Assembly (NCBI GenBank): GCA_036338695.1
Contig: JAYZBQ010000065.1
Span: forward strand, 1 to 31,188
Reading direction: 5' to 3'
Length of the DNA: 31,188 nt
Origin: Myxococcota bacterium
GTDB taxonomy: Bacteria; Myxococcota; UBA4151
Shown: positions 1,098-31,188 of the stretch, piece by piece
Position numbering within the stretch: the stretch's first letter is position 1
Layout: every line of letters begins with the position of its first letter
Notes under the pieces: model-generated
Databases searched by the model: none
What the model was told of the DNA's origin: nothing
What the model saw: only the letters and a program-made list of their open reading frames with translations
Position numbers and translations under genes: made by a program

Positions 1098-1847
1098 ATG
1101 ACGGCGGGTGCGGGACAGAAGGTGTTGGTGACTGGGGTGTCGGGCTATATCGGGCTGCATTGCGCCGCCGAGCTCTTGGAGCAAGGGTATTCGGTGCGCG
1201 GAACGCTTCGCAGCGCCGCCCGTGAGGCTTCGCTTCGGCGCGCGGTGGGCTCGGTGTCGGCGCGTGCCGATGAGATCGAGTTTGCACAGGCGGACTTACT
1301 CGATGATGCCGGCGTCGCCCCGTCTGGCTGCGGCGACGGGGTGGTCGATCCGGGCGAGGGCTGTGACGATGGGAACCGCAGCAACCATGATCAATGCACC
1401 AATGCGTGTCAGCGCGCCGCGTGCGGCGATGGATGGGTGCGCAGCGGGGTGGAGACCTGCGACGACGGGAACCGGACCTCGGACGATGGCTGCGACTCTG
1501 CCTGCCAGCTTGAAGAGCAAGGCGATCACGGCGACACAGCGAGCGAGGCGACGCCGATGTTCGTCCCCGGGCAGCGACAGGGAGCGCTCGATCGCCGTGA
1601 TGACCTTGATTTCTTCGTCTTCGTAGCACCCCAGACGCGACGCTACTTCATCGAGACGACGCAGCGGACCGACACGGTCTGCACCCTGTTCGCCAGCAAT
1701 GGAACCCAGCTTGCGATGGACAACAACAGAGGCGTGAGTAACAACTGCGCCATCATGGCGGAGCTTGAGGCAGACCAGACCTACCGGCTGCGGATCCACG
1801 GTTCTGCGGGCTCGATGGGGTCCTACAGGTTGCACGTCAACTGGTGA
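1098..1847 (+). CDS. Chimeric ORF: N-terminal fragment of an extended SDR/NAD-dependent epimerase (aldehyde reductase-like) + 2 Cys-rich DUF4215-type repeats + PPC-like C-terminal domain
   Basis: Rossmann motif KVLVTGVSGYIG...GYSVRGTLR...ADLLDDAG, then an abrupt switch at about 1313 to [16 protein letters not shown]. It ends in DHGDT...DDLDFF...DTVCTLF...TYRLRI...GSYRL (PPC-like). RBS GAGGGAG. Confidence 0.7.
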   Translation: MTAGAGQKVLVTGVSGYIGLHCAAELLEQGYSVRGTLRSAAREASLRRAVGSVSARADEIEFAQADLLDDAGVAPSGCGDGVVDPGEGCDDGNRSNHDQCTNACQRAACGDGWVRSGVETCDDGNRTSDDGCDSACQLEEQGDHGDTASEATPMFVPGQRQGALDRRDDLDFFVFVAPQTRRYFIETTQRTDTVCTLFASNGTQLAMDNNRGVSNNCAIMAELEADQTYRLRIHGSAGSMGSYRLHVNW

Positions 1848-7030: not shown

Positions 7031-8053
7031 CTAGAAGGGCGACCAACCCAGGCTGATTCCGCCGTTGATCAAGCGGACACCACGCTGGCTGCTCGTAACG
7101 CCCCCTTCAAGGGTTTCGCTGCTCACAAAGCCGGCGCTCATGTGGACATCGAAGACCAGCTTGCTCGGGAGGACATGCCGGAAGCCAGCGACAGCGCCTG
7201 CGCCCAAGTCACTGCCGGTCTGAGGCTCGCTCGCAGACCCCTGACCCCAGCTCCAATTGCGGTAAAGCATGGTGAAACCCAGCCGTCCGCCACGAGTCTG
7301 GCTGCCGATCAAAGCTACCTCGTAGTCCACCTCCCAGAGGGTGGTGGTGTCGTTGTCTTCGGGCCCACTACCGACGGCGGCGTTGGCGCTGAATCGACGC
7401 CCAAGGCGTAGCCCGACCCCGCCGAGGAGCATCGCAGGCGGGCGGTAGCTGGTGCGGAGCACCAAAAAGCCCATCTCTTCGGAAGCCAAAGCGGGCTGGG
7501 GCGCTGGTTGCGGGGGGGCTGCGGGCTGAGCGCTTGAGCGCTCGGTGACCTTCTCAAGCAGCTTGCTCGCGACCTTGGCGGTGGCGTTGACGACAACCTG
7601 CCGCTTGGAGGGGTGCTCACCGAGCAGGTCGCTGGCGACCTCTGGCAGCTTGAGCAAGAGCGACTCGATCTTGGCGGCATGGGCTGACGCCGTGCGCTTC
7701 GCCGCCACCGTCTCGATGTCGATGAGCTTAAGCTGCAGCGTGTACAGGCTCCCGAGTTTGCCGACCTGACCGCTGATCAAGAATTTGGCGCCGAGCGCGC
7801 CGCCCAGCTCCGCGACGCAGCTCGCCTCGTCGCAACCACCGGAGAGCTGCCGGGTGAGCTCCTCGTCCACCGCGCTCATCTCCTCGGGCGTGACCAGGCG
7901 ATACCGCTCGGAGCGGCCGATCTGGGTTCGCAGCTCGGCGGTCAGGATGGACACGTCAGCCGCAGGGACCCCAACCGCCTTGAGCGGCACGACCACGGTG
8001 GTCTGAGGTGCGGTGGCGGCGAGCGCAGTCGCGAGCAGTGCGGAGTAGATCAT
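7031..8053 (-). CDS. Exported protein: N-terminal CsgG/TolB-N-like alpha/beta domain, Pro-rich linker, probable C-terminal beta-barrel
   Basis: Signal peptide; GCxEASCxAELGGALGA domain; PAAPPQPAPQP linker; amphipathic strands ending in SLGWSPF. Confidence 0.75.
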   Translation of the reverse strand: MIYSALLATALAATAPQTTVVVPLKAVGVPAADVSILTAELRTQIGRSERYRLVTPEEMSAVDEELTRQLSGGCDEASCVAELGGALGAKFLISGQVGKLGSLYTLQLKLIDIETVAAKRTASAHAAKIESLLLKLPEVASDLLGEHPSKRQVVVNATAKVASKLLEKVTERSSAQPAAPPQPAPQPALASEEMGFLVLRTSYRPPAMLLGGVGLRLGRRFSANAAVGSGPEDNDTTTLWEVDYEVALIGSQTRGGRLGFTMLYRNWSWGQGSASEPQTGSDLGAGAVAGFRHVLPSKLVFDVHMSAGFVSSETLEGGVTSSQRGVRLINGGISLGWSPF

Positions 8054-12124: not shown

Positions 12125-15100
12125 ATGGTTCGATTCAGGTTGTGGCGTTGGGCGGGTTCGCTCGCAGTGGTTTTGAGTTTGTCCTGCGGCGACCAAGTGG
12201 TCGTCCGGGAGACCCAGGCAGAGTGTGGCAATGGCACCGTCGACAGCGATGAGCAGTGCGATGATGGCAACACCGAGCCAGGCGATGGCTGCACCGACGG
12301 CTGCCGGCTTGCGCTCTGCGGTGACGGCATCATGCGCACCGACCTGGACCCGGGCGATGAAGGGTATGAAGGCTGTGATGACGGCAACGATGAAGACACC
12401 GACGCGTGCCTAAACACCTGCCGAGTCGCCGCCTGCGGCGATGGTGTTGCGCGCAACGATGTGGGCGAGGGTGAGCCGGGTTTTGAAGCCTGCGATGACG
12501 GCAACGACAGCGACCTTGATGGCTGCCTTGTGAACTGCGTGGCGGCTCGCTGCGGCGACGGCTTGCAGCGCCAGGACCTCGCCGAGGGTGACCCGGGCTT
12601 TGAGGCTTGCGACGATGGGAACGAGGACGACACGGACGCTTGCTTGAGCAGCTGCGTCCTGGCGAGCTGCGGTGATGGGATCGTCGGTCCTGGCGAGGGT
12701 TGCGATGACGGCAACGATGACCCGACGGATGGTTGCAACAACTGCGTCCCGTCGTCCTGCGGTGACGGCGTCGTGCAAGCAGGTGAGATCTGCGACGACG
12801 GCAACCAGGAGGACAGCGACGGGTGCCTAAGCTCTTGCGCGCCGGCGCGCTGCGGTGATGGGCTCGTGCGCACCGACTTGGCGGTCGGAGCGCCTGGCTA
12901 TGAAGCATGCGATGACGGCAACGCCGACCCAGCCGACGCCTGCACGGCGACCTGCGAGCTGGCGCGCTGTGGGGACAGGATTTTGCGGCGCGATCTCCAG
13001 CCCGAAGAGCAGGGCTTTGAGGAGTGCGACGACGGCAACGTTGAGTCGGGCGATGGCTGCTCGGTGACCTGCGGGCTCGAGCGCTGTGGTAACGGCAGGA
13101 TCGACCAGGGCGAGCTCTGCGACGACGGTAACGCCGTTGATACGGATGGATGCACCTCCGCCTGCCAGCCGGCGCGCTGCGGTGATGGGATCCGGCGCAA
13201 CGACCTCGAGCCGGGCGCCGACGCCTTTGAGGCTTGCGATGATGGCAACCGAGAATCGGGCGACGGCTGCTCCTCAGTCTGCGGCCTTGAGCGATGCGGT
13301 AACGGTCAGGTGGATGCGGGTGAGCAGTGTGATGACGGCAACCGCGTGGACGCAGACGCCTGCACGAACGGCTGCTTGAACGCTCGCTGCGGCGACAACA
13401 TCCTGTGGGCTCAAGCTGAGCAATGCGACGACGGCAACCAAGACCCAACCGACGCGTGCCTGAACGACTGCCGCCTCGCGCGTTGCGGTGACGGTCAGAT
13501 CTGGGCTGGGCGAGAAGCTTGCGACGACGGGAACCAAGACGACACCGACGGCTGCCGCAACGACTGCACCGAGGTGCGCTGCGGTGACGGCGTGGTCGCG
13601 CAGGGGCTCGAGGCATGTGATGACGGCAACCAAGATGACACGGACGCCTGCCGCAACAACTGCGAGCTGGCGCGCTGCGGCGACGGCGTCGTGCGCGCCG
13701 GGGTCGAAGGATGCGATGATGGCAACGAGGTCGACACCGACGCGTGCCTCAACCGCTGCGCGCTCGCCACCTGCGGCGACGGCGTCATCCGAGCCGGCGT
13801 CGAGGCCTGTGATGACGGCAACCGAGAGGACGCCGATGCGTGCCTCAACACATGCGCTTTAGCGACCTGCGGCGACGGGCGCCGCCGTCGTGACCTCCAA
13901 GAGGGGGATCAAGGCTTTGAGCAATGCGACGACGGCAACGCGGTCGACACCGACGGGTGCCGCAACAACTGCCTCGCAGCGCGCTGCGGAGATTCGGTGG
14001 TGCGCGCCGGGGTGGAGGACTGCGACGACGGCAACGAGGTGCAGACCGATGCGTGCCTGAACAGCTGCCGGTTCGCTCGCTGCGGCGACGGCGTGGTCGA
14101 GGAGAACGTCGAGGCTTGTGATGACGGAAACCGATTTGAGACGGACGCGTGTCGAAACAACTGCCAGCCCGCCCGCTGCGGCGATGGGGTCGTGTACGAA
14201 GGGGTCGAGGCCTGCGACGATGGCAACGGCGCTCAGACGGACGCTTGCCTCACCAATTGCGTCGCGGCACGCTGCGGCGATGGTGTGGTGCACGCGGGCG
14301 TCGAGGCTTGCGATGACGGCAACCAAGTTCAGACGGATGGCTGCCTGAATGACTGCGTGGCGGCGCGCTGCGGTGACGGGGTTGTTGAAGCGGGCGAAGA
14401 GGCTTGCGATGACGGCAACAACAACAACGATGACCAGTGCCAGAACGACTGCACCCAAACGCCCTCGGGTTCGACGCAGGATCGCGCCGCCCGGTCGTGC
14501 AAGGCGATCCTCGACGCCGGCGCATCGACCGGGAGCAAAGCCTACTGGATCGACCCGAACGGTGGCGGCACCGACGATGCGTTTCAGACCTGGTGCGACA
14601 TGACCACCCGCGGCGGCGGCTGGACCTTGATGGCGAAGCTCACCAACGCAGACGGCAGCAACTGGCACGCCCACTCAGCGCGCTGGGTTGATACGTCGAC
14701 CTTCGGCACGATGACCAACCTGAGCAATGCGGATGGGAAGAGCCAGGCGTACAATAGCTTGGCGGTGCGCGAGGTGATGGTGACCTCGTCCAACAACGCC
14801 AACCAGGTGGTGAGCGTCGGCAATTGCCTCAACGACTGGACCTTTCGGACCCTGTTTCGCCGGAACTCCGAGGAGGGCAACTGCGCGCACTCCTGCGGCA
14901 CCGTGGCGCGGGTGGGGCGCTGGCAAGGTCAAGCTCGTCAAGATGGGACCTTGCGCTTTCGCTGCCGTGATCGCGACGGGGTGACCTCGGCGCATGGTTT
15001 TACCGTGACGAACGGAGACAACAGCTTCGTCACGACCATGAGTCACGATGGCGGCAACCGGGACTACAACTTCGGGCTCGGCGCCGGTGAGGGCGGGAAC

Positions 15101-15181
15101 AACACCTGCGACTGGGACAACGACACCTCCGATGGTTCGAACAGCGGGGACAACGCGCTGCAGCTGTTCTACGGCCGCTAG
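12125..15181 (+). CDS. Repeat lipoprotein A (1018 aa): 22 DUF4215-type Cys-rich repeats + fibrinogen/intelectin-like tip
   Basis: GGGAGG RBS before ATG 12125; lipobox LSLS-C21; tip RSCKAI...YWIDPNG...[15 protein letters not shown]. Confidence 0.9.
12224..14452 (+). repeat. 22 tandem 30-39 aa Cys-rich repeats (CG[DN]G...E.CDDGN...D.C...C)
   Basis: Counted by hand from the translation. Confidence 0.9.
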
Positions 15182-15199
15182 CCCTGAGGAGACCATACG

Positions 15200-17995
15200 A
15201 TGAGACGCAATGCATGGAGCCAGCTTGGCGCGCTGAGCGCGATCCTGTTGAGCCTGTCCTGCGGTGACCAAGTGGTGGTGCGTGAGACCGAGGCCGCCTG
15301 CGGTAATGGCAGCGTGGAGGTGGGCGAGCAGTGCGACGACGGCAACGAAACCAACACCGATGAATGCACCAACGGGTGTGAAGTCGGCGTCTGCGGCGAT
15401 GGCGTGACGCGCACGGACCTCGCCCTCGGTGATGAGGGGTTTGAAGCCTGCGATGACGGCAACGACAGCGACCTCGACGGCTGCACCACGCAGTGCGTTG
15501 CGGCGACTTGTGGTGACGGGATCGTCCGGCAGGACCTCCCCGAAGGCGTGAGGGACTTTGAGGAGTGTGATGATGGCAACGACAGCGACGCCGACGCCTG
15601 CTTGAGCGATTGCGTCGCTGCGCGCTGCGGCGATGGAGTGCTGCGCACCGACCTCGCCGAGGGCGATGCGGGCTTTGAGGCCTGCGACGATGGCAACGAC
15701 GTCGACGAGGACACCTGCCTGCGCACGTGCCTGAGCGCGCGCTGCGGCGATGGGGTCGTTGGTCCGGGTGAGGGCTGTGATGACGGCAACGACGACCCGA
15801 CCGACGCGTGCAACGCATGCCAGCCTGCATCGTGCGGCGATGGGGTCGTCCAGGAGGGTGAGCGCTGCGACGACGGCAACGACGTCGAGACCGACGACTG
15901 CTTGAGCTCGTGTGCGCCGGCGTCGTGCGGTGACGGCGTCGTGCACGAGGGGGTTGAGGGCTGCGACGATGGGAACCCGGTCGCGCACGACGGCTGCACC
16001 TTATTGTGTGAGGTGGCGCGCTGCGGCGACAGCATCCGCCGGCTCGATCTCGCACCCGAAGATCAGGGCTTTGAGGAGTGTGACGACGGCAACCAAGAGG
16101 ACGCAGACGGTTGCTCGTCGCAGTGTCTGTCTGAGCGCTGCGGCAACGGTCGCGTTGACACAGGAGAAGCCTGCGATGACGGCAACGAGCGAGACACCGA
16201 CGGCTGCACCAATTCATGCGTCCAGGCGCGCTGCGGCGACGGGATCCGCTTTGTCGGTGAGGAGGCGTGCGACGACGGGAACCGGGACTCGGGCGACGGT
16301 TGCGACGCCGAGTGTCGCCTCGAAGCGTGCGGCAACGGAAGGCTCGACGCCGGCGAGCGCTGCGACGACGGTAACCGCGTGGAGGTCGACGCGTGCCGGA
16401 ATAATTGTGTCCCTGCAGCCTGCGGAGATGGTGTTTTGCGCGTTGACCTCGAACCCGGTGTGCTTGGCTTTGAGGCATGCGACGACGGCAATCAGGTCAA
16501 CACCGACAACTGTCTAGCGACCTGTCTCGCGGCGCGCTGCGGGGATGCGTTCGTCCATGAGGGGGTCGAGGGCTGTGATGACGGTAACCGGGTACCGGGC
16601 GATGGTTGCGACGCGCTGTGCCAAACCGAAGGCTGCGGCAACGGGCGCCTTGATGCGGGTGAAGCCTGCGATGACGGGAACGCGCAGGTCGGTGATGGAT
16701 GCGACGATCAGTGCCGAAGGGAGGTCTGCGGTAACGGGCGCGTCGACGCGGGAGAGGTCTGCGATGACGGGAACCGGGTCGAGACGGACGCCTGCACCAG
16801 CGCATGCCTGAGCGCTCGATGCGGCGATGGTATCCGCAGGCAGGACCTTGAGCCGGGGCAGCCGGGCTATGAGGGATGCGATGATGGTAACCAGGTCGAT
16901 GATGACGCCTGCCGCAATACCTGTGAGGTCTTGCGCTGCGGCGACGGCGTGGTGGTTCAAGGCGTCGAGGCTTGCGACGATGGCAACCGAGTCGAGACCG
17001 ATGCGTGCCGAAATGACTGCACCGTGGCGCGCTGCGGGGATGGTGTCGTCCGAGTTGGCGTTGAGGGCTGTGATGACGCCAACCTCGTCAACACGGACGG
17101 GTGCTTGAACGATTGCACCACTGCGCGTTGCGGCGACGGGGTCGTTCGAGCCGGTGTAGAGGCGTGCGACGACGGCAACCAAGTCGATGATGACGGCTGC
17201 AGCAACGCATGCGAAGTGGCGCTGCTCGGTGAAGCTCAGAACCGACCCGGGCGAGACTGCAAGGCGATCAAGACAGCCCGCCCGGAGGCTCGAGATGGGA
17301 CCTACTGGATCGACCCAGACGGGGTACGACAAGGCGAGGCGTTTCAGGCGGTCTGCGATATGACCACGGACAGCGGCGGCTGGACCTACATCGCAACGAT
17401 CACGAACAACGGAGACGGCAACAACCGTGGGAATTGGCTGCACACCACGCCCAACCCGAACCGCTGGGAGGGGACCGACGTGTTGGGCGCCATGGACCCT
17501 GGCGCCAACGCCGATTATCGCTCCGCTGGTTTTCACCGAATCCAAGCCACGGCGCTCATGATCCGGCATCGTAACCAGTTTTTACTCCGTACGAACAACA
17601 GCTGCCTGGCGGGTCGAGTGCTTTCCGACCACTTCGCCAACTTGACCTGGTCGTGTGGAGGGTCCGCTGGCTTGGGCGCTAACACAGCCTGCGCTAACCC
17701 TTGCGCGATCGCCGAGTCGACGGTGCGCAACGGGGACTCGGCGCTGCTCGCGGGCGCCAACCGCTCAGCGCTTTTCTTCAAGGCGGGTGAGGCGAACGGT
17801 GCGCAGGATCGTAACAAAGACCGTGCGTATCTCTCGACCACCTATCGAGACAACGTCGACTATCCCACGGGGCTGGGCGCTTTTTGCAGCGGCACGAGCT
17901 GCTCGCCGCGCACGGGCGAAGCCGACGTCAACAACCGCTCGGACGCAATCGTGCCGACCGCGGGTAGCGAGTTTTACGGGCTGTGGGTGCGCTAA
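15200..17995 (+). CDS. Repeat lipoprotein B (931 aa): 19 Cys-rich repeats + fibrinogen/intelectin-like tip
   Basis: AGGAG RBS, 18 nt after gene A; lipobox LSLS-C21; tip RDCKAIK...[10 protein letters not shown]...[13 protein letters not shown]. Confidence 0.9.
15299..17212 (+). repeat. 19 tandem Cys-rich repeats
   Basis: Counted by hand from the translation. Confidence 0.9.
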
Positions 17996-19500
17996 GGGCA
18001 CTCGGTCCAGCGGGCGCTCTTGAGGAGCCCATCGACATCGCAGACGCACTCGCCGAGGCGCTGTCCGACGCGAAGCACCTCACCGTCGATGGAGCAGCCA
18101 AACGCCGGCGTCATGGCGAGCGCGCCTTCTCGATCGGCTGAGTCAGCGAAGCGGATCGTTTGGTCGTCCAAGAGGATGGGTGAGCTCAAAGACAGGGTGT
18201 AGGTTCTGTCCAGCCGCTCGGCTGAGACGCCGGTGAGTTCGGCGCTGAAGGCGCGTACTTCGCCGGGCTGCAGAGTTTCCAGGTTACTCGCAAGCAGTCT
18301 TCGTTCGTCGACGTCATCGCTCAGATTCAGCGCGAGCGGGTAGTAGAAGGGTGCGACGCCTGTGTTCCTGAGTTCAACGTCGATGCGAACATCCACGAAA
18401 CCTCCGCGCAGGTTGGATGCGGTGACCGCAAAACGAGGGACGCTGAATTCGTAGCCCATCGACAGCGATGCCGCTTGAGCGGCGGCGAGCTGTTCGCCCT
18501 CGTAGCCGTCATCTGGGCGAAAGGCGCCGTTGTTAATCATCCAGGAGGCGTGGGTCTGCGTGACGCACTCCGCAAAATCTTGGCTTGGGGTGTCGACTCC
18601 GCCCCCCGGTAAGAACAGCTGCGCCTGAAGCTCCGGGTAGACCTCGCCGCCGATGGGCGCCACGCGCCAGCGATCCTGGGCTTGGGCGGCGAGCATCCGA
18701 GGGTAGAAGTACCAGTCTGTCTCACCCAGGGTGGCGTAGGCGAACGAGTCATCGTGGTAGCCGATGGTGCGCTGTGGCGCGTCATGGATGGGGTAGCGCA
18801 GCAGAACATGCGTCTGGTCAAAGGCGGCATCAAAGGCGGCGATCACCTGCCGCTGGAAGACATCTGGGGCGAACCAGTCGCCGTGCGGGTAGGTGTGCCA
18901 CTCGCCCCAAAACCCGAGCAGACCCATCTGCACAAAGCCGATACGGTTGTCGCCATCATAGCGCGCGCCGAGCGCCGCGATGAAGTCGAGCAGCGTCGAT
19001 TGGAGCAGAGGGTTGGCGTAGTCCGGGCTGCAGCCGCCGCCCCAGTCGGTGTACTCAGAGCAGTCTACCTCCTGTGCCAGCCACTCGGGTAAGCCAGGGG
19101 CTCGCCCAGGATAGTCTAGATAGAAGCGGATGATCATGTGGTTGCCGCGACCGCTGGATTCATCGAGGTAGGGCTCGAGCGCGGTGTCGAAGGCATACTG
19201 GTTCGCTCCGGTGAGCACGGACGACAGCGGCAAGTAGAGGAACTCGAGCGCGTGCGGCATCCGCTCATCGGGCGTCGTCCATTGGTAGCTGGTCAGGAAC
19301 CCTTTGAGCGGATTGCCGGCGGTGACCGCTCGATCGTAACGGACCGTGCGTTCCTGGGTGGCGCTTGCAAGAGATCCAAGCCGAACCCCTGCGTCGCCGC
19401 CGATCGAGGCGTCCGGTGCAGCCGTCGGTGGCTCGGTCACAAGGCTGCTCTGCCAACAAGCTGCTCCAAGGCAGCAACCGAGCGTGATCCACGATCGCAT
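17992..19500 (-). CDS. DUF4832-type putative glycoside hydrolase lipoprotein
   Basis: GAGGAG RBS; LGAA-C lipobox; [70 protein letters not shown]. Confidence 0.8.
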
Positions 19501-19686
19501 ACTGGACTCCTCTTCAACCGCCTCGTGCGTAGACAGCTTATCACGCCGAAGGTCAAAAGCGACGCAATGAACCCGGACCCGTTGCGTCTGCGCTCGCAGC
19601 AGGTCAAGCTCAGGCGAGAGTTCTAAGGATGTGCGCCTGTTGTGTCCTCGCCGAGCACCTTGATTAATGCATCAAAGAGTCTGCGG

Positions 19687-20610
19687 ATGCCGCTGTATTT
19701 TCATGCTTTGTACACGGGGGGCATCGCGCCCGATGCGCGCTTTCCTCGCTCCCGATACGAGCGACTCCGCAGCCGGCTCAGCCGGGGGGAAGCCTCAGAA
19801 CTCCTTGAGATTACAGAGGCGCCGCGTGCACGGCGTGAGGACATTTTGCTTGCGCATGAGCCAGAGTACACGGCGCGCTTCCTGAGTGGGAGCATGGACC
19901 GCGCCGAGCGGCGCCGGATCGGCCTTCGCCCTTGGACGCCGCTCCTCATTCCGCGCACGCTGCATCTACTCGGTGGCGCCATCGCTGCGCTCGAGCACGT
20001 GGCACGTCAGGGTGGGGTCGCCGGCAATATGGCTGGGGGGACGCACCACGCACACTACGATTTTGGCTCGGGTTTCTGCGTCTTTAACGATCTGGCGATT
20101 TGTGCACGCATCGCCCATCTGCGGCTCGGCTTGGAGCGCATCAGCGTCCTTGATCTCGACGTTCACCAGGGGGACGGGACCGCCACGTTGCTCTCGGACG
20201 ACGACTACGCTCGGACCATCTCGGTCCATTGCGCGCAGAACTTCCCGCTGCGAAAAGCCGCAAGCGATGTCGACCTACCCGTCGATCAGGGCACCGGCGA
20301 TGACGTCTACCTCGAGGTGGTCGAGCGCGCGCTGGACGCTGCCTTTGAGCACGCCCCGGATCTTCTGTTCTTTCAGGCCGGAGTCGATGGCTTGAGCGCC
20401 GATGGTCTCGGGCGGCTCGAGCTGAGCCGTGAGGGCCTCTGGGCTCGCAACGCACGCGTGTTCGAAGCTTGCGAGCGCGCCGGGATCCCCTGCCTTGTCT
20501 TCATGGGGGGCGGCTACAGCAAGCCCATTGACCATACGGTCGACGCCTTTGAGGACCTTTTTGTCCAGGCAGCCAGGAGCCACCAGCGGCATCTGATGCG
20601 GCGCATCTGA
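19687..20610 (+). CDS. Histone deacetylase family (class IV/HDAC11-like) amidohydrolase
   Basis: AGGTHHA, GFCVFND, DLDVHQGDGT, QAGVD, GGGY motifs. Start taken at ATG 19687. Confidence 0.92.
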   Translation: MPLYFHALYTGGIAPDARFPRSRYERLRSRLSRGEASELLEITEAPRARREDILLAHEPEYTARFLSGSMDRAERRRIGLRPWTPLLIPRTLHLLGGAIAALEHVARQGGVAGNMAGGTHHAHYDFGSGFCVFNDLAICARIAHLRLGLERISVLDLDVHQGDGTATLLSDDDYARTISVHCAQNFPLRKAASDVDLPVDQGTGDDVYLEVVERALDAAFEHAPDLLFFQAGVDGLSADGLGRLELSREGLWARNARVFEACERAGIPCLVFMGGGYSKPIDHTVDAFEDLFVQAARSHQRHLMRRI

Positions 20611-20646
20611 CCGGCTGATCGGTCGTTTGCCGGACCGTGGTTGCCC

Positions 20647-20671
20647 ATATAGTAAAGCTGGTTTACTAAAT
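20647..20671. promoter_or_regulatory. AT-rich palindrome, probable MarR operator
   Basis: TAGTAAA-gctgg-TTTACTA (20650-20668) directly upstream of the MarR RBS, next to a -35-like TTGCCC (20641-20646). Confidence 0.7.
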
Positions 20672-20691
20672 AGATGAGGAGGGTCCCTACG

Positions 20692-21195
20692 ATGAGCCCA
20701 TCAAGGCGAGATCAGTTACGCCTCCAGGTCGAAGAGCTCGAGGCGCAGCGCCTAGGAAACAGTTTGGTACGGCTGGGGCGGTTGACGTACCAGCGAACGG
20801 TTGAGCGGCTGCGCGCCCGCGGGCTCAGCGAGCTCCGGCTCAGCTACACCACGTTGTTGCCACATCTCGACCGCGTCGAGGGGTCTCGGGTGACCGAATT
20901 GGCTGAGCGCATGGGGGTGACGACGCAAGCCGCAGGGCAGATGGTCAGCCAGCTTGAGCAGGCTCAACTGGTCACGCGACGCCCGGACCCGAAGGACGGC
21001 CGCGCCCGGCGCGTCGAGCTGACCACCCAAGGTTTTGAGGTGCTGCTCGCGGGGCTTGAGGTCTTCGCTGAGCTCGAGGCCGAGCTCGAGGAAGCGCTCG
21101 GTAGTGAGCGCATGGACGCGTTTCGCAGCAGCGCCGACCAGAGCCGTCGTTATCTAGAATCCCTCGACGATGAGCGCTCGTCGAGAACGTCCTAA
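20692..21195 (+). CDS. MarR family transcriptional regulator
   Basis: AGGAGG RBS; wHTH motif VTELAERMGVTTQAAGQMVSQLE...V.R.PDPKDGRARRVELT..G. Confidence 0.92.
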   Translation: MSPSRRDQLRLQVEELEAQRLGNSLVRLGRLTYQRTVERLRARGLSELRLSYTTLLPHLDRVEGSRVTELAERMGVTTQAAGQMVSQLEQAQLVTRRPDPKDGRARRVELTTQGFEVLLAGLEVFAELEAELEEALGSERMDAFRSSADQSRRYLESLDDERSSRTS

Positions 21196-21205
21196 GAGGA
21201 GAGGT

Positions 21206-22912
21206 ATGATGTTTGATCTCGTGATTCGTGGCGGAACCGTTGTCGATGGAAGCGGTCGCCCCGCTGTGCTCGCCGATGTGGCGATCAAGGACGGTGTCAT
21301 CGCCGAGGTAGGCCGCGTCGGACCGGGGCGTCGAGAGCTCGACGCGAGCGGCGCGTTGGTCACGCCAGGCTGGGTCGACGTCCACACGCACTACGACGGC
21401 CAGGTCACCTGGGACCCGTTGCTCACGCCCTCATCGTGGCATGGCGTCACGACCGTCGTGATGGGCAACTGCGGCGTCGGCTTCGCCCCGGCGAAGCCCG
21501 ACAAGCACGACTGGCTGATCGGTTTGATGGAGGGGGTCGAGGACATCCCAGGTGCGGCGCTCGCTGAGGGCATCAACTGGGCATGGGAGACCTTCCCTGA
21601 GTACATGGATGCGATCGAAGCGAACGCTCGAGCCATCGACTTTGGTGTCCAGCTGCCGCACGGGGCGATCCGAGCGTATGTGATGGGCGAGCGCGGCGCG
21701 CAGAACGAGGAGGCGACCGCCGAGGATGTAGCCGCCATGGCGCAGGTCGTCGAGGAAGGCTTGCTGGCGGGCGCTCTTGGGTTCTCAACCTCGAGGACGC
21801 TGATGCATCGCTCGATCGACGGGATACCGGTACCGGGAACCTTCGCCGATCGCCTCGAACTCTTTGGCATCGGCGAAGCGCTCAAGAAGACGGGGCGTGG
21901 TGTCTTTCAGCTTGCGGCGCAGCATGAGGACGTCCCTGAGGAGCTTGAGTGGATGGATGAGCTGGCGCGTTACACCGGTCGTCCGGTCAGCTTTAACCTA
22001 AGCCAGATCGATCCGGACCCGCAGCTGTGGCGGCGTGGCTTGGAGCGTCTTGAGCGGGCGGACCGGCGCGTCGTGGCGCAGGTCGCTGGTCGCGGGATCG
22101 GTATCATCATGTGCTGGGAGGGGACCGCACACCCCTTTTTGAACCGCGCCGCCTACCTGCCGTTTCACGAGCTCAGCCCGGCGGAGCGGCGCGCGCAGCT
22201 CGAGCGCCCCGAGGTGCGCCAGGCGATCATCGAGTCACCGATGATGGAGCTCGATGAGCTCGGTAACTTTGTCACCCGAAGCTGGCACAAGATGTTCGTG
22301 GCCGAGCCCGGGCAGACCATGTCTTATGAGCCCGGCGCAGAGCACAGCGTGGCGGCGATCGCTGCGCGCACCGGGCGCTCATGCGAGGAGATCGCCTATG
22401 ATGCGTTGATGGAGCTGGACGGTCGGGGTACTTTGTATTTCCCGCTCTTCAATTACGCAGAGGGCTCGCTCGCACCTCAGTATGAGCTGCTGAGTCACCC
22501 GCGCACTCGCCTGGGGCTCAGTGACGGCGGCGCGCATTGCGGCGCGATCTGCGAGGGGGGGATGGCGACCTTTATGCTCACGCACTGGACACGGGATCGG
22601 GCGCGTGGTCCTCGGCTCGGGCTCGAGCGTGTCGTCGCGATGCAGACCCATGAGACGGCGCAGCTGTTTGGGCTGGGTGATCGCGGCTTGCTCAAGCCGG
22701 GGTACAAAGCCGACGTCAACCTCATCGACTACGCCAACTTGCGCCTCGAAAACCCGAAGATGGCTTATGATCTGCCGCTTGGCGGTCGCCGTTTAGTTCA
22801 GCGCGCGCATGGCTACGTCGCCACCGTCGTTTCAGGCGAGGTGATGATGGAGCACGGTGAATCGACCGGCGCATTACCCGGGCGCTTGCTCCGAGGCGCG
22901 CGCAGCCTGTAG
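21206..22912 (+). CDS. N-acyl-D-amino-acid deacylase (D-aminoacylase) family amidohydrolase
   Basis: DLVIRGGTVVDGSG, PGWVDVHTHYD, GVTTVVMGNCGVGFAP, LSDGGAH, DRGLL.PG.KAD.N; RBS GAGGAGAGG. Confidence 0.92.
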   Translation: MMFDLVIRGGTVVDGSGRPAVLADVAIKDGVIAEVGRVGPGRRELDASGALVTPGWVDVHTHYDGQVTWDPLLTPSSWHGVTTVVMGNCGVGFAPAKPDKHDWLIGLMEGVEDIPGAALAEGINWAWETFPEYMDAIEANARAIDFGVQLPHGAIRAYVMGERGAQNEEATAEDVAAMAQVVEEGLLAGALGFSTSRTLMHRSIDGIPVPGTFADRLELFGIGEALKKTGRGVFQLAAQHEDVPEELEWMDELARYTGRPVSFNLSQIDPDPQLWRRGLERLERADRRVVAQVAGRGIGIIMCWEGTAHPFLNRAAYLPFHELSPAERRAQLERPEVRQAIIESPMMELDELGNFVTRSWHKMFVAEPGQTMSYEPGAEHSVAAIAARTGRSCEEIAYDALMELDGRGTLYFPLFNYAEGSLAPQYELLSHPRTRLGLSDGGAHCGAICEGGMATFMLTHWTRDRARGPRLGLERVVAMQTHETAQLFGLGDRGLLKPGYKADVNLIDYANLRLENPKMAYDLPLGGRRLVQRAHGYVATVVSGEVMMEHGESTGALPGRLLRGARSL

Positions 22913-22959
22913 GTGTGCCGTCGTCCGCCCCGTGCTAAAGCGTCTACAGGAGGCTTAGG

Positions 22960-23562
22960 GTGGTGGATTTTGGACAGCTCAAGGCAGCAGCTCTGCTGCT
23001 GGCAACCGTGGCGCTGGCGAGTCACTCCGTCGCTGCGGAGCCCTCGCAGGACCGGTACAGCCTAGGGACTGACTCGCTGACCTGGGCGATTGACGGGTAC
23101 TCGCTGATCGGCACGTGGGAGCGTGCCTCTCTACCAAGCGTACGCTGGCACGTCGAAGCCTTCGGGATTGAGATCCCGGAGGGCTTGGTCGACGGTTTTG
23201 AAGGCAACACGGGTGAGGGCTGGCGGCGCCGTATACACCTGGCGCTGATGCTGAGCGCCGACCATCATCCCTTGGCGGCCTTGCCCGGTTTGCACTGGGG
23301 CGCAGGCTTCAATGTCCAGCGCACGAGCGTGTCGCGCAGAGGCATCGATGGCGAGCAGACCTACGACCTGATCGAGCCCATCGTGCGCGTCGGTTATCAG
23401 TGGTTTCCGCTCGCTGATGTCGGGCTCTTCCTGACACCCTATATGGTGCTGGGTGTGCCCATCCACCTGAGCGAGCCCGAGCCGATCGGCGGTCAAGCCT
23501 ACCAGGAGGCGGCGCTGCTGCCTGCAGCTTCCGTGCAGATAGGCTGGCGCTTTGCGCCCTGA
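22960..23562 (+). CDS. Hypothetical exported protein, probable small outer-membrane beta-barrel
   Basis: GGAGG RBS with GTG start; signal peptide ...SVAA-E; amphipathic strands RVGYQWFP, GLFLTPY, SVQIGWRF. Confidence 0.7.
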   Translation: MVDFGQLKAAALLLATVALASHSVAAEPSQDRYSLGTDSLTWAIDGYSLIGTWERASLPSVRWHVEAFGIEIPEGLVDGFEGNTGEGWRRRIHLALMLSADHHPLAALPGLHWGAGFNVQRTSVSRRGIDGEQTYDLIEPIVRVGYQWFPLADVGLFLTPYMVLGVPIHLSEPEPIGGQAYQEAALLPAASVQIGWRFAP

Positions 23563-23706
23563 TGACGAGGGCTGAAGGGAGAGGGTCGTCGGCTCACCCT
23601 TTGGTCCACAGGATGGCTGAGTCCGGATGAGCCGCTTCGATTGGGCGGGCATGGGTTGTATCTTGGGCGCGCTTCGTTCAGTGCTTATGGGGCTGATGGA
23701 GGTGGT

Positions 23707-26214
<2,508 letters not shown>

Positions 26215-26218
26215 CAGG

Positions 26219-27175
26219 ATGAGGAGCGATGCTTTGAACCGTATCGGGCTGATCGGTAGCGCCCTTTTGATGACCGTTAGCGGGTGCGGCGGACCAGCCG
26301 CTGTGGCGACCGACGCTGGCGCCGCTCACGGGGACGGGCTCATCGACGCTGGGCGGCGCGTCGACGCAGGCGAAAGAGGCGACGCCGGCACGCCGGATGC
26401 GGGCGTTGATAACGACCCGATCGAGATCACACCGACGGACGCACAGACCGAGTACATCAACCACTGGCTCGCTCAAGATCACGGCGAGGAGTTTGTCTCG
26501 TCGCTCAAGTGGCTGCCGCACTTTGTTCATGAACAGGGCGAGCTTGGCGTGTGCCTGCGGCTGGAGTTCCGCGAGCCGAAGCGCGTGCCGGGTTGGCGTA
26601 TCGAAGAGATCCGCTCGATGATCGCCGAGCGTATTTGGCTTTGGCAAAAAGGGCTGATCGGGCAACCTCATTGGATACACGACACCCCTGCGCCGGTTAA
26701 GCTGTTTGGGATCGGCGCTACCGAGCAGGTTGAGCTGGTGGATCCACCGGACGTGCCCGTGTACCGCAACGAGAACGCAGAGTGTCCAAGCAGCTGTTTT
26801 CGGTTCACCTACAAGCATGAGCGAGCGCCGGATTATGCGGACTGTGAGCACCCAAGCATGACCCATTTTGACTTCAACATTTGGTATTCAGATTTCGACA
26901 TCGGCGCAGCGGGGCATGGCGGTGACTGGGGCACGCGGCTGCCCTGGCGACTGTTTCTCGAAGAGCTGCGCAGCCCAGGACCGAAGCGAGTGACCGACCA
27001 TGAGCTCGGACACGTCGCCGGGCTGCCCGACGTCTATAACTATCCTATGGAGCTCAACGGTCACGCGCGACCGGAGGGTATCATGGCACAGGCGATGAGC
27101 ATCACCGCTTTTGACCATCTCTTGCTGCGCGAGGTCTGGCGCATGGCTTGGGAGAACTTTTACGCCAGCCCGTAG
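26219..27175 (+). CDS. Lipoprotein zinc metallopeptidase (HExxH)
   Basis: Lipobox VSG-C; DAG linker; C...C.RF...DY.DC...HFD...W...G.GGDWG; HELGHVAGLPDVY followed by a GIM Met-turn-like motif. Starts 4 nt after gene C. Confidence 0.8.
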   Translation: MRSDALNRIGLIGSALLMTVSGCGGPAAVATDAGAAHGDGLIDAGRRVDAGERGDAGTPDAGVDNDPIEITPTDAQTEYINHWLAQDHGEEFVSSLKWLPHFVHEQGELGVCLRLEFREPKRVPGWRIEEIRSMIAERIWLWQKGLIGQPHWIHDTPAPVKLFGIGATEQVELVDPPDVPVYRNENAECPSSCFRFTYKHERAPDYADCEHPSMTHFDFNIWYSDFDIGAAGHGGDWGTRLPWRLFLEELRSPGPKRVTDHELGHVAGLPDVYNYPMELNGHARPEGIMAQAMSITAFDHLLLREVWRMAWENFYASP

Positions 27176-27268
27176 AGTGGACCTGTTCGCGCCGTGAATA
27201 GAGAGCATCCGGGCGCCGTTAACTCCGCCGAGTCGCTGGTATCGACGTCCCCATTTTGGAGAGCTGCT

Positions 27269-27970
27269 ATGAAGTCCCTCGTGATCGCATCGTTTCTTTT
27301 CGTAACGGCTGGCGCTGCCACCGCTTCGCCGCCGCCAAGGAGCATTAAGGTGAGCGCACAGGCGAGCGAGCGCATCGTGCCGGACCGAGTGCTCTGGCGA
27401 CTGGTCCTCAACGCACGCCACCGCGACCTCACCAAGGCGAAGGCAGCCTCTGACCGGCAGATTCGTGACGTCCTCGCCACCACTCGGCGCCTTGGCGTTC
27501 AACCCTCCGACGTCCAGACGGGCGAGCTGTCGATCGATAAAGAGTACAGCGACCGCTACAGCTCGATCAAAGGAGGCAGAAAGTTCGTGGCGTACGTCCT
27601 CAGCCGAACGGTCGTCGTTCGCCAGCGCGCGCCGAAGCGGTTCGATGACTTCTTTACGGGGTTCATCAAAAACCGGGATATGAAGGTGGATTACGAGCTG
27701 GCGTCCTCGAAAGCGGCTAACCTCAAGGCGAAGGCGCAGGTCAACGCGGTGATCGCCGCGCGTGCGAAAGCTCGGGCGATGGTGGAAGCGCTTGGTGCCA
27801 AGCTGGGACGAGTAATGAAGATCGATGAGGGCTACCGTCCCAGCCATCGGCGGCGCGGACACAACCTGGCGATGGGGACACTCGATGGGTCAGCGTCAGA
27901 GGGCAGCACCTTCGCGCCCGGCACGATCGAGTTCTCGTCCGCTGTGACCGTCGAGTTTGCGATCGAGTGA
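27269..27970 (+). CDS. SIMPL (DUF541) domain periplasmic protein
   Basis: GGAGAG RBS; signal peptide; RSIKVS.......PD, DVQT, A..AARAKA.....LGAKLGRV..I.E, PG.I....V.V.F.I. Confidence 0.85.
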   Translation: MKSLVIASFLFVTAGAATASPPPRSIKVSAQASERIVPDRVLWRLVLNARHRDLTKAKAASDRQIRDVLATTRRLGVQPSDVQTGELSIDKEYSDRYSSIKGGRKFVAYVLSRTVVVRQRAPKRFDDFFTGFIKNRDMKVDYELASSKAANLKAKAQVNAVIAARAKARAMVEALGAKLGRVMKIDEGYRPSHRRRGHNLAMGTLDGSASEGSTFAPGTIEFSSAVTVEFAIE

Positions 27971-28033
27971 ATCGATGGGATGATGCGGCGCAACGTGTTG
28001 TTGAATGCGTCGCCATGTTAAGGAGCCAGCTGC

Positions 28034-29794
28034 GTGTCCGAGGATGGGAACACCGAGCCTGATCCGCGATCGTCGCGCCTCGACCTAGCGCGGGTCGCCT
28101 CACTCGCTCGGTCGGAGTGGCGGTTGCTCGCCGCAGGCACGCTGGCGCTGCTCCTCTCGACAGGGACCACACTGATCGCGCCGCTCTGGGTCGGTGATCT
28201 GGTTGATCGCATCACGTCTTCTGGCGATCGCGATCAACTGAACCTCGCAGTCCTTGCGCTCTTGGTGCTCTTCGTCGTCAGCGGCAGCGCAGCAGCTCTG
28301 CGCATGTATTGGTTTACGGTGGCCGGTGAGCGGATCGTGCTGCGCTTGCGTCGCCAGCTGTTCTCCGCGCTGATCGCTCGCAGCGTCGGTTTCTTTGACA
28401 CGCGCCGAACCGGTGAGCTGATCAATCGGCTCGCCTCGGACACGACGGTTTTGCAAAACACGGTCACGGTGAACGTCTCGATGGCGTTGCGCTTTGGGCT
28501 GCAGGGTCTTGGCGCCGTTGCGATCTTACTGTGGACCTCGTGGAAGCTCGCCGCCGTGATGCTCGCCGTAGTGCCGGTCGTGGCGCTCGGCGCAGTGGCT
28601 TACGGTCGGCGACTTCGCCGGCTCAGCCGCCGGGTGCAGGACGCGCTCGCCGGCGCCTCGGAGGTTGCGGAAGAGTCGATCGCAGGGATCCGCACAGTGC
28701 GCGCCGTTGTCCGCGAGCAGATGGTCACCGCTCGTTATGGTGACGCCGTCGGGGCAAGCTATGAGTTGGCGCGTCAGCGGGCATGGATCGGCGGGTTGTT
28801 CGCCGGATTTATCGGCGTGGTGGGCTACGGCGCAATTGCGGCGGTGCTTTGGTATGGCGGCACGCTCTTGATCGACGGTCAGCTCAGCTTTGGACAGCTC
28901 ACGAGCTTCTTGCTTTACACTTTTACGGTCGCCTTTAGCATCGGCGCGCTCGGTGGGCTCTGGTCCGACTTCGCACGCGCCGCCGGCGCCAGTCAGCGAG
29001 TGTTCGAGCTCATCGACGCAGCCCCGACCGGGATGACGAACGGCGAGCGTCTGGAGGAGCCCAGAGGCGACGTTGCGCTCGACGCGGTGAGTTTTGCCTA
29101 TCCCAGCCGACCTGAGGTGGCGGTTTTGACCGGCGTGACGCTCCATCTTCGCCCTGGAGAGGTCGTCGCTCTGGTGGGTCCGTCTGGATCGGGGAAGTCA
29201 ACGATCGCGCAGTTGATCTCGCGCTTGTACGACCCGGGCGAGGGGGTGCTGCGCTTTGACGGTCGAGCCTACGATGAGCTCGATGCGAGCTGGCTGCGCC
29301 AGCAGATCGGCGTCGTCAGCCAAGAGCCGATGCTCTTCGCCGCCAGCGTCGCCGAGAACATCCGTTTTGGGAACCCGAGCGCCAGCGAGTCCGAGCTGCG
29401 AGCCGCTGCCGAGTCCGCCAACTGCGTTGAGTTTATCGACCGCTTTGAGGACGGTTGTGAGACGCTCGTCGGCGAGCGCGGGGTGCAGCTTTCAGGCGGG
29501 CAGAAGCAACGGATCGCGATGGCGCGTGCGCTCTTGAAGGACCCATGCGTGCTGGTGCTCGACGAGGCGACGAGCGCCCTCGATGTCGCCTCTGAGCAGC
29601 TCGTTCAAGAGGCGCTCGAGCGCTTGATGGTGGGCAGGACGACCCTGGTGATCGCGCATCGACTGAGCACGGTTCGTGGGGCGGATCGGGTGGTCGTGTT
29701 GGATGAGGGGCGGGTCATCGAAGAGGGCACGCACGAAGAGCTCATGGCGAACCGAGGCCTCTATCAACGCTTGGTGGCGCTTCAGTTCAGCTAG
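28034..29794 (+). CDS. ABC exporter, fused permease + ATPase (ABCB/MsbA-like half transporter)
   Basis: AAGGAG RBS with GTG start; six TM segments, FFD..RTGELINRL, Walker A GPSGSGKS, LSGGQKQR, LDEATSALD, IAHRLST. Confidence 0.93.
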   Translation: MSEDGNTEPDPRSSRLDLARVASLARSEWRLLAAGTLALLLSTGTTLIAPLWVGDLVDRITSSGDRDQLNLAVLALLVLFVVSGSAAALRMYWFTVAGERIVLRLRRQLFSALIARSVGFFDTRRTGELINRLASDTTVLQNTVTVNVSMALRFGLQGLGAVAILLWTSWKLAAVMLAVVPVVALGAVAYGRRLRRLSRRVQDALAGASEVAEESIAGIRTVRAVVREQMVTARYGDAVGASYELARQRAWIGGLFAGFIGVVGYGAIAAVLWYGGTLLIDGQLSFGQLTSFLLYTFTVAFSIGALGGLWSDFARAAGASQRVFELIDAAPTGMTNGERLEEPRGDVALDAVSFAYPSRPEVAVLTGVTLHLRPGEVVALVGPSGSGKSTIAQLISRLYDPGEGVLRFDGRAYDELDASWLRQQIGVVSQEPMLFAASVAENIRFGNPSASESELRAAAESANCVEFIDRFEDGCETLVGERGVQLSGGQKQRIAMARALLKDPCVLVLDEATSALDVASEQLVQEALERLMVGRTTLVIAHRLSTVRGADRVVVLDEGRVIEEGTHEELMANRGLYQRLVALQFS

Positions 29795-29819
29795 CGACAT
29801 ACCTTTCCGCCCAGCCGGC

Positions 29820-29848
29820 TCGACAATCTGCTGAGACTTCGCCACCAT
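29820..29848 (+). promoter_or_regulatory. Candidate sigma70-like promoter of repeat lipoprotein D
   Basis: TCGACA-N17-CACCAT, with the same layout as upstream of paralog A. Confidence 0.45.
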
Positions 29849-29872
29849 CGGGCGCCTGACAGGGAGGGCAGC

Positions 29873-31188
29873 ATGCGCGTGGAGCGACGAATCTTCTGCT
29901 TGATGAGCCTGGTGATCACGAGCGCCGCCTGCAGCGATCAGGTGGTGGTGCGAGAGACCGAAGCCAGCTGCGGCAACGGCAGCATCGAGACCGGGGAAGC
30001 CTGCGACGACGGCAACGAGGTCAACACCGACGCGTGCACCAACGCGTGCAGCCGAGCTGCCTGCGGTGACGGCACGACGCGCACCGACCTTGAGGCGGGC
30101 GCCGAGGGCTATGAGGGCTGTGATGACGGCAACGCAACGGACAACGACGGCTGCACCAACGCCTGCGCCATCGCTCAATGTGGTGACGGGATTTTGCGCA
30201 GCGACGTCTCCGAGGGCGAGCTTGGGTTTGAAGCCTGTGATGACGGCAACGGCAGCGACGAGGACGGGTGTCTGAGCGACTGCACCGAGGCGCGCTGCGG
30301 GGACGGGGTTGTCCGAGGTGATCTCGAAGAGGGTGAGCCTGGGTTTGAAGCCTGCGATGACGGCAACGACGCCAACGACGACGCCTGCCTGAACAGCTGC
30401 GAGTCGGCGCGCTGCGGCGACGGCGTGCTCGGCCCGGGCGAAGGGTGCGACGACGGCAACGACGACCCAACGGACGCCTGCAACAACTGCCAGCCAGCGA
30501 GCTGCGGCGACGGCGTACTCCAAGAAGGGGAGCGCTGCGATGACGGCAACGACGTCGAGACCGACGCCTGCCTGAGCACCTGCGCACCCGCAGTCTGCGG
30601 CGACGGGGTCGTCTGGGAAGGGCGCGAAGCCTGCGACGACGGCAACGCGGAGCAGCGCGATGGCTGCACGGGCGTCTGTGCGCTCGCTGTTTGCGGCGAC
30701 GGCATCACCCGCGCGGACCTTGCGCCGGACGCCGAGGGCTTTGAGGAATGCGACGACGGCAACGACGACAACACCGACGCCTGCGTGGCTGGGTGCCGCG
30801 TGGGGCGCTGCGGTGATGGTTGGGTCTGGGACGGCCGAGAGGGCTGCGACGACGGCAACGAGGTCGAGACTGACGGCTGCTTGTCGTCGTGTGTCGAGGC
30901 GCGGTGCGGTGACGGGCTGGTGGGGCCAGGCGAGGCTTGTGACGACGGCAACCAGGTTCAGACCGATGACTGCCTGAACAGCTGCGAGCTGGCGCGCTGC
31001 GGTGACGGTTTTGTCTTGGACGGGGATGAGCGCTGCGATGACGGCAACCGCTCCAACGAGGACGCCTGCCTGAACAGCTGCGTCCCGGCGCGCTGCGGGG
31101 ACGGCAACGTCCACCGGGGCGTCGAAGCCTGCGATGACGGCAACGAAGTCCAGACCGACGGCTGCCTCAACAGCTGCGAGGCTGCGGC
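29873..31188 (+). CDS. Repeat lipoprotein D, partial (runs off the 3' end; absent from the ORF track)
   Basis: GGGAGG RBS; my translation [36 protein letters not shown]..., open to the end of the window, with 12 Cys-rich repeats visible. Confidence 0.9.
29969..31188 (+). repeat. At least 12 tandem Cys-rich repeats
   Basis: Counted from manual translation. Confidence 0.88.

Follow-up and report, generated by a model that had tools for sequence, protein, structure and literature searches.

What might four proteins do that share a lipoprotein-type start and a stalk of cysteine-rich repeats and differ in their C-terminal tips, and how would such tips be exchanged? The question is raised by contig JAYZBQ010000065.1 (positions 1 to 31,188, forward strand; this whole stretch of 31,188 nucleotides is the window), part of the Myxococcota genome GCA_036338695.1 (G000; 3.36 Mb in 99 contigs, 94% complete). 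A preliminary description of the window had recognized four lipobox paralogs, at 12125, 15200, 23707 and 29873, and these genes are confirmed here together with their motif and repeat counts; the four stand, however, for a family of about 100 genes genome-wide. Drawing on G000 and five relatives (G001-G005), together the six genomes of the class, we propose, at a probability of roughly two in three, that these genes form a class-wide set of about 100 encoding predicted lipid-anchored, likely outer-membrane stalks, with varied tips that bind glycans or proteins on prey, particles or cells, and that this set is slowly reshuffled. New here are its extent across the class, the definition of its base, and measurements of how often and where it is reshuffled. 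The four genes and their parts are as follows.

12125..15181, + strand: gene A, 1018 amino acids; lipoprotein signal with Cys21 at 12185, 22 repeats, fibrinogen/intelectin-like tip at about 14453-15178
15200..17995, + strand: gene B, in tandem with A; Cys21 at 15260, 19 repeats, second fibrinogen-like tip at about 17213-17992
23707..26214, + strand: gene C; Cys21 at 23767, 15 repeats and one degenerate Cys module, then the tip
about 25402-26211, + strand: tip of gene C, ALK/LTK-like, TNF-like/glycine-rich
29873..31188, + strand: gene D, 5' part; Cys20 at 29930, 12 repeats within the window
15260..15304, + strand: post-lipobox motif C-x-[DE]-QVVVRET-x-A-x-CG, as found in B; also at 12185, 23767 and 29930
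15263..15928, + strand: conserved base of B; one 31-residue, three 39-residue and two 30-31-residue repeats

Architecture and class-wide scale

The N-termini of A-D each present a basic, hydrophobic signal ending at the lipobox cysteine (Cys21, 21, 21 and 20), from which the sequence reads C-[GS]-[DE]-QVVVRET-[EQ]-A-x-CGNG and continues in CDD[GA]N repeats (22, 19, 15 and 12 within the window) of 30-39 amino acids with four cysteines each. This start predicts that the N-terminus is lipid-anchored through the lipobox cysteine. The tip of gene D, correctly placed outside the window by the preliminary description, was found on contig G000:C43, whose first 141 bases are exactly the last 141 of the window; the complete gene encodes 618 amino acids with 14 repeats and an orphan Cys-rich tip of about 120 residues that has no match in Pfam or Atlas. 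The repeats are those of the 'Myxococcus cysteine-rich repeat' proteins (myxo_disulf_rpt) and lie far over the cut-offs, with 213-377 bits against TIGR02232 (cut-off 20.8) and 185-299 bits against PF13948 (DUF4215; cut-off 27). The stalk is acidic in composition (17% Asp, 12% Cys). The base, described earlier as constant, is conserved and not constant, since the four copies are mutually 68-78% identical. Among 117 bases (G000 included, only the best-scoring members taken from relatives, 94 with a known tip), 103 have the repeat order long-long-long-short-short ('LLLss'), and the order and number of the distal repeats vary (9-30 repeats).

Inspection of the whole genome reveals 100 repeat open reading frames (ORFs) with 1154 repeats on 51 of the 99 contigs, amounting to 6.7% of the DNA when measured stop-to-stop, which makes the share slightly too high. 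A VVVRE-type base occurs in 36 ORFs by a relaxed regular expression and in 26 by a strict DNA pattern. By a further regular expression applied to 5'-complete ORFs, a lipobox-like start is present in 61 of 88 family members versus 119 of 1157 background ORFs, and the residue at lipobox +2 in the family ORFs that pass is mostly Gly or Ser, with Asp in one. Ten adjacent pairs were counted among 91 family genes. Together, the VVVRE motif and the fixed LLLss order of the base distinguish a subfamily present in all six class genomes, where first-look TIGR02232 candidates, a proxy for repeat number (1216 candidates versus 1154 counted repeats in G000), reach 273-362 per Mb. The corresponding median is 8, and the maximum 79, across 113 other listed Myxococcota genomes (two unlisted no-match genomes excluded), so that candidates in the class are 3.4-4.6 times as dense as in the next genome sampled and 34-46 times as dense as at the median. 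The repeat itself is widespread: 99 of 121 sampled Myxococcota genomes have it, often alongside RCC1, LamG, PPC, Kelch and other domains; these other carriers differ from the present class in their lower density, and the VVVRE motif and LLLss base are the marks of this class's subfamily. Sequencing runs containing window DNA are marine, estuarine or salt-marsh where the habitat is stated; no RNA run was listed among them, a result with no bearing on expression. No description of the VVVRE-base family was found in the literature, a search with subscription papers and supplements outside its scope, so that tables of genome papers could mention it; the excerpts of PMC11925022 and PMC12075869 consulted hold nothing relevant to the family. 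The repeat family is catalogued yet almost unstudied, and its occupation of about 7% of a small marine genome, as the mark of a whole uncultured class, points to surface contact as central to lifestyle.

An AlphaFold2 model of the base (222 residues, built from 61 sequences) has a predicted local distance difference test score (pLDDT) of 90.9 and a predicted template modelling score of 0.68, and it lacks regular secondary structure, with zero strands of three or more residues. The top Foldseek rows for this model are PAPP-A (34 residues, root-mean-square deviation 1.0 Å, E-value 0.5) and ADAM22, and a single repeat aligns by sequence with PAPP-A residues 947-978. Against PDB sequences, the base profile and the whole stalk returned nothing at an E-value of 1 or below except ADAM17 at 0.18. 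Two Ca2+ ions are modelled in domain M3 of PAPP-A (S944-G995; PMC9579167), and because the repeat matches this domain, the stalk would probably be stiffened by disulfides and Ca2+. In the animal proteins PAPP-A and ColQ (residues 373-397 of the latter annotated as this repeat; PMC8667818) the repeat stands as a single copy, whereas here it forms a tandem stalk on predicted bacterial lipoproteins.

Several members depart from this architecture. The giant ORF G000:C70:2-8395 (L285) encodes at least 2798 amino acids with about 74 repeats and has no tip, and further tipless members are found at G001:C10, G003:C33 and G001:C182. At G000:C10:3153-5351 (L032) a frame break splits a family gene, intact in G001:C131, into base and tip ORFs. 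The repeat protein at G000:C28:11026-13404 (L038) ends not in a tip but in a tail (GCGC..., a hydrophobic stretch, RRR) that we take, from inspection of the sequence, to be MYXO-CTERM-like.

The tip repertoire

The modular base-stalk-tip design with very diverse tips, as proposed from the window, is supported by the catalogue of 86 G000 tips (C-terminal regions of at least 60 amino acids). Twenty-one are RCC1-like, 14 fibrinogen-like (one also RCC1), three C-type lectin, two LamG, two ALK/LTK by Pfam and two PPC, with one each of PNGase-F-C, FGE-sulfatase-like and TSP3/TNFR and one that holds a residual repeat only. The 35 tips on VVVRE bases comprise 12 fibrinogen-like, 4 ALK-like, 2 RCC1, 1 LamG and 16 without family, and related tips (41-64% identical) also occur on other base types.

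The tips of A and B match NF040941/COLFI/Fibrinogen_C and are 31% identical to one another, in agreement with their earlier designation as divergent fibrinogen/intelectin-like domains. For NF040941, which covers the N-terminal YCDxxxxGGGW subdomain, they score 56 and 65 bits (cut-off 30), and the match of the A tip to intelectin-1 (E-value 8e-7) stops at tip residue 109 of 242. Taken alone, the C tip matches Pfam ALK_LTK_GRD weakly (E-value 0.005), and a single-sequence structure prediction of it was unusable (pLDDT 39.5). Its ALK/LTK-like character, also anticipated, emerges at the level of a 12-sequence profile of its relatives, which matches human ALK/LTK at an E-value of 1e-34 over profile positions 7-251 of 279 and so spans both the TNF-like and the Gly-rich parts; 10 of the 12 members match PF12810, with the C tip itself under the cut-off. 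In animals the ALK domain sits in a receptor kinase, whereas here it is the terminal tip of a predicted bacterial lipoprotein, and such bacterial tips bear on the origin of the ALK/LTK domain. The tips of L045, L048, L042 and the window (25402-26211) are very close to the human ALK ectodomain, with an N-terminal stretch that is nearly identical in the profile alignment.

Exchange of tips and recombination near the lipobox

Orthologues were taken as reciprocal-best base pairs (RBH) with a margin of at least 15 bits, and tips as shared at 50% identity or more over 70%. Under these thresholds 22 of 27 within-genus pairs keep their tip and five carry unrelated tips, and one weak cross-genus pair also has differing tips; among 3384 random cross-genome pairs, 52 have a common tip. 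On the base tree, 56 tip states require 64 changes, compared with a minimum of 55 and with 84-87 in ten printed shuffles. Coupling is the rule, yet exchange is real, and it affects about one orthologue pair in five within a genus, which provides a measurable natural case of adhesin evolution through domain exchange.

Tip exchange through the repeats, as the preliminary description had supposed, is seen at syntenic loci with conserved flanks. In the pair G000:C74/G001:C20 both flanks are conserved (73% and 72%) and the stalks of 2025 and 2022 nucleotides are colinear, and the tips are unrelated. The tip is likewise replaced between two conserved flanks in G000:C14/G001:C139, which is syntenic though under the RBH margin, and in G004:C112/G005:C33, where the stalks are unequal. 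A fourth pair, G000:C67 with an RCC1 tip and G001:C67 with a fibrinogen-like tip, has a common upstream flank that is 80% identical. In three of these four pairs identity falls in the distal stalk ahead of the tip, and the crossover is therefore placed in the repeats. Three replacements thus have both flanks conserved between species, and none of six complete same-species genes exchanged its whole tip. Inside G000, C28 and C37 have a 756-bp stalk in common at 98% and then continue into an orphan tip and a LamG tip, respectively. When a recent source of the C74 tip was sought within the same genome, only a 41%-identical paralog came up. Two of the five RBH mismatches (C25/G003:C118 and G001:C186/G002:C590) are without usable flanks, and their orthology is unconfirmed.

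For window genes A, B and D, base and tip are kept together in relatives. The orthologue of A in G001 (base 78%, tip 80% identical) occupies the same position beside a DUF4832-like gene, and that of D has 80% and 78% identity in base and tip. Gene B is missing from the corresponding site of G001, but a metagenome contig 99% identical to G001, L244, has it after A, with 76% identity in the base and 90% in the tip. A C-type tip (78% identical) sits in L240 on a base whose three best matches are other genes.

Tips are under purifying selection, with ratios of nonsynonymous to synonymous substitution (dN/dS) of about 0.03-0.13 where dS is estimable, and diversifying selection was not seen in 12 pairs. 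The divergent tip of L249 has dN 0.083 and dS 0.66, versus 0.02 and 0.24 in its base; that both values are raised fits an imported segment. Purifying selection bears on whether the family is a defensive coat, in which dense acidic stalks and the assorted tips capture nothing and instead protect the cell against phages or grazers or serve as decoys. The huge investment for a small (3.4 Mb) genome would suit such a coat, as would two differences between close strains, gene presence or absence and a single mosaic tip (L244, L249). We nevertheless consider it unlikely, as the tips are constrained and kept across species, unlike fast-evolving escape antigens, and as the named tip folds are binding folds.

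Within species, all six complete genes keep their tip, at 100, 99, 99, 96, 95 and 86% identity. Together with purifying selection and the excess of shared tips within the genus over random pairs, this stability does not bear out the term 'polymorphic' that had been applied to the system, since tips are mostly fixed. Changes between close strains include instead gene losses from arrays and fusions, close to the lipobox, of a signal peptide with a different body. A metagenome scan anchored on the post-lipobox motif gave 26 contigs with 29 motif sites, 19 of which lie on contigs about 90-100% identical to a compared genome and so belong to the same or a sister species. Contig L246 has 0 mismatches to G001:C67 over 300 nucleotides upstream and eight in the first 30 nucleotides past the Cys, such that the signal peptide is kept exactly and a different body begins at the Cys codon. 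In L234 a signal region of about 200 nucleotides, ending at the Cys, is replaced; L236 has an intact gene where G000:C58 (17589) retains a remnant cut about 50 nucleotides past the Cys; and L238 has three extra repeats. G000 C87 and C89 have common upstream DNA and diverge 50-60 nucleotides past the Cys. A contig of run X2 has three listed C89-type bases and its match ends at the C87/C89 break, and contigs of run X4 have the C87 form, with a single upstream contig each. Because genes with the C87 and C89 tips stand in tandem in G001, C89 reads best as an array deletion.

Three further candidates were set aside. A stalk deletion of about 0.68 kb in L227 was not counted, as the reading frame is broken, and G001:C151 and C186, which resembled a recent duplication, proved to be a single gene spanning two overlapping contigs. 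For rapid change of tips at the window loci, contigs of four marine runs (four studies) were considered. They cover the tips of A, B and C; in one run they bridge the A tip to the start of B and the C tip to the next gene, and in three runs they bridge a neighbouring gene to the start of C or D, but all are too short to join base to tip, so that swapping is not addressed by them.

The post-lipobox motif defines the VVVRE subfamily, and several recombination junctions fall there. Could it then be a DNA recombination site that joins promoter and signal peptide to alternative bodies, in the manner of shufflons or of the expression sites of antigenic variation? Four close-strain junctions, those of L246, L234, C87/C89 and the C58:17589 remnant, lie no more than about 60 nucleotides from the Cys codon, and zero mid-stalk body swaps were seen at the 19 close-strain motif sites, as programmed switching would predict. 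The motif is, however, conserved at the protein level, and its third codon positions show no excess conservation (0.53 versus 0.40-0.67 elsewhere), and on this evidence a DNA crossover site was rejected. It is also the 5' edge of paralog homology, and both the motif-anchored search and the breaking of contigs in stalks bias junctions towards it. The dedicated recombinase and conserved crossover site of shufflons and other site-specific cassette systems were not found: the sole tyrosine recombinase found in the 94%-complete G000 is XerC-like, serine recombinases not having been searched. Matches to the motif pattern, as a sign of phage carriage, were absent from viral contigs. Programmed switching is accordingly very unlikely in our estimation. 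The XerC-like gene (G000:C53:22262-23194; L292:762-1694) is immediately preceded by two repeat genes and followed by a TadE-like gene.

Homologous (RecA-type) recombination appears to be the simplest account. It would act between paralogs about 70% identical, many of them in tandem. Crossovers in the stalk swap the tip, as seen at syntenic loci between species, and crossovers near the lipobox motif rejoin a signal peptide with another body or delete genes, as seen between close strains. Repeat numbers expand, and birth and death in tandem arrays reshape the repertoire. Since most base-tip pairs are stable across within-genus divergence, the family is a standing library that is slowly reshuffled rather than a fast switch. 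A bolder reading is improbable, namely that a surface receptor library of about 100 members defines the class, with bacterial counterparts of ALK/LTK, intelectin-like, PAPP-A M3, C-type lectin and LamG domains and dozens of unknown folds, and that the motif serves as both surface-export signal and recombination hinge, with which a population could re-couple promoters and signal peptides to different bodies and so switch prey or particle binding.

Function, related systems and neighbouring genes

In the slowly reshuffled repertoire that we favour, the lipobox cysteine would anchor the N-terminus, nine to 30 acidic repeat beads would form a spacer away from the cell, and the C-terminal domain would be the binding end, its probable ligands being glycans or proteins borne by prey, particles or other cells. 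The combination of N-terminal lipid anchor, long spacer and terminal binding-type fold suggests adhesins or receptors. Prey capture is the likeliest single use, a tentative choice to which we would give somewhat less than even odds, because G000 has an FHA-fused pilus-type ATPase like KilF (G000:C95:17445-21528; L290:3446-7529, - strand), adjoining a two-FHA protein. KilF of the Myxococcus contact-killing system is FHA-fused (PMC8460266).

Several points weigh against this interpretation. As many as 39 of the 86 tips match no Pfam family. The fibrinogen-like match spans mainly the first 50-110 residues, outside the ligand-binding part, and lectin activity of these tips is therefore unsupported. 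The PAPP-A matches are short, and their E-values are weak (0.1 for sequence, 0.5 for Foldseek); of a Kil-like system, the analysis covered the FHA-ATPase plus a single neighbouring gene. Every genome is a fragmented assembly, often broken within family genes (contig ends leave 27 repeat ORFs open), and the single-contig junctions L246, L234, L236 and L238 could be assembly chimeras. The 39 family-less tip domains are at the same time a resource, and together with the close bacterial relatives of the ALK/LTK ectodomain they are accessible to expression and screening with no need for a culture.

Lipoproteins of diderm bacteria are placed by default on the periplasmic face. The proteins might accordingly face the periplasm, or form a scaffold that binds Ca2+ after release in vesicles or matrix, instead of acting as surface adhesins, and no surface-export route was identified. 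We regard this as rather improbable, given that long spacers with lectin-like and receptor-like ends fit an outward-facing role and that the type II/IV-type ATPases and DsbA-like domains of G000 fit exported disulfide-rich proteins, without proving display. One ORF, G000:C48:5018-6787 (- strand), contains three tandem DsbA-like (Thioredoxin_4) domains and may help to fold disulfide-rich proteins. Separately, G000:C26:23122-25815 (L289:7123-9816, - strand) encodes a PilT-family ATPase fused to HEAT repeats and lies beside a second PilT.

The MAT proteins of the predator Bdellovibrio are the best functional analogue of the proposed adhesins. They comprise 21 trimeric fibres of beta-helix/beta-prism type that are related to phage spikes, and 13 of them have an S74 chaperone (PMC10769870). 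Both are repertoires of paralogs with a conserved N-terminal part and diverse C-terminal tips that include a C-type lectin (PMC10769870). The present proteins differ in being predicted lipoproteins with a Cys-rich bead stalk, for which Ca2+ is predicted, and in numbering about 100 genes. Neither S74 nor beta-helix matched in the window proteins or the 86 tips, and the base model, with no strands of three or more residues, does not resemble the beta-rich MAT N-domain of about 130 amino acids; 'fibres' in the MAT sense of trimeric beta-prisms, a word used of this family before, are thus not indicated.

TraA, the other system with which the family had been compared, resembles it in having a stalk of Cys-rich repeats that is proposed to present a lectin-like domain. 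The topology is inverted and the repeats are of another kind. In TraA, PA14 stands at the N-terminus, the repeats are TIGR04201 and a MYXO-CTERM anchor closes the C-terminus (PMC3325183); the protein is encoded at a single highly polymorphic locus (PMC6372800) adjoining traB, whereas here an N-terminal anchor, TIGR02232 repeats and a C-terminal tip recur at many loci. PA14 matched in none of the four window proteins or 86 tips, and the repeats begin right after the lipobox; neither TIGR04201 nor MYXO-CTERM matches A-D, seven weak TIGR04201 matches in the genome lying on other contigs or positions; and no OmpA (traB-type) gene occurs among the 21 window proteins scanned. Kin or self recognition of the TraA kind, in which matching tips on two cells bind each other, would draw on membership of the same phylum, on the Cys-rich stalk with its lectin-like end and on differences in gene content between strains. 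It is highly improbable for some 100 loci with tips 95-100% identical between strains in five of six complete genes, in contrast to the one highly polymorphic locus (PMC6372800) of opposite topology and other repeat (PMC3325183).

Attachment has been proposed elsewhere for similar proteins. Peribacteria have large exported Cys-rich proteins, strain-variable and weakly similar to the repeat, that were proposed for attachment (PMC4736985); they form a set of about twenty in a symbiont of the Candidate Phyla Radiation, as opposed to about 100 genes per genome here. A diatom adhesive-trail protein carries 12 such repeats (10.1101/2023.03.06.531300).

One further repeat-bearing ORF lies in the window.

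1098..1847, + strand: chimeric ORF; short-chain dehydrogenase N-terminus in frame with two repeats and a PPC-like tip, without signal peptide

Its repeat and tip part is 41% identical to G000:C95:12883-13848, and the ORF is likely a product of illegitimate recombination or a misassembly. Other genes of the neighbourhood (SIMPL, ABC transporter, M6-like protease, DUF4832-like) frequently adjoin a family gene in relatives too, but a different one, so that they were not counted as parts of the system. Within the window, the ORF at 26219-27175 (+ strand) has a weak M6/snapalysin-like metalloprotease motif and follows a family gene in G000 and a different one in G004, but does not do so in G001 or G005. 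The protein encoded at 5992-7008 (+ strand) has a MopE-type Cys/metal-binding motif (PF11617), a second type of Cys-rich repeat. Weak LpoB-like N-terminal domains are found at 7031-8053 (- strand) and 9948-11444 (- strand), the latter with CarboxypepD_reg and PEGA domains in addition. Finally, at position 19236, inside the DUF4832-like gene, contigs of runs X3 and X4 (two studies) have an identical 66-letter loose end.

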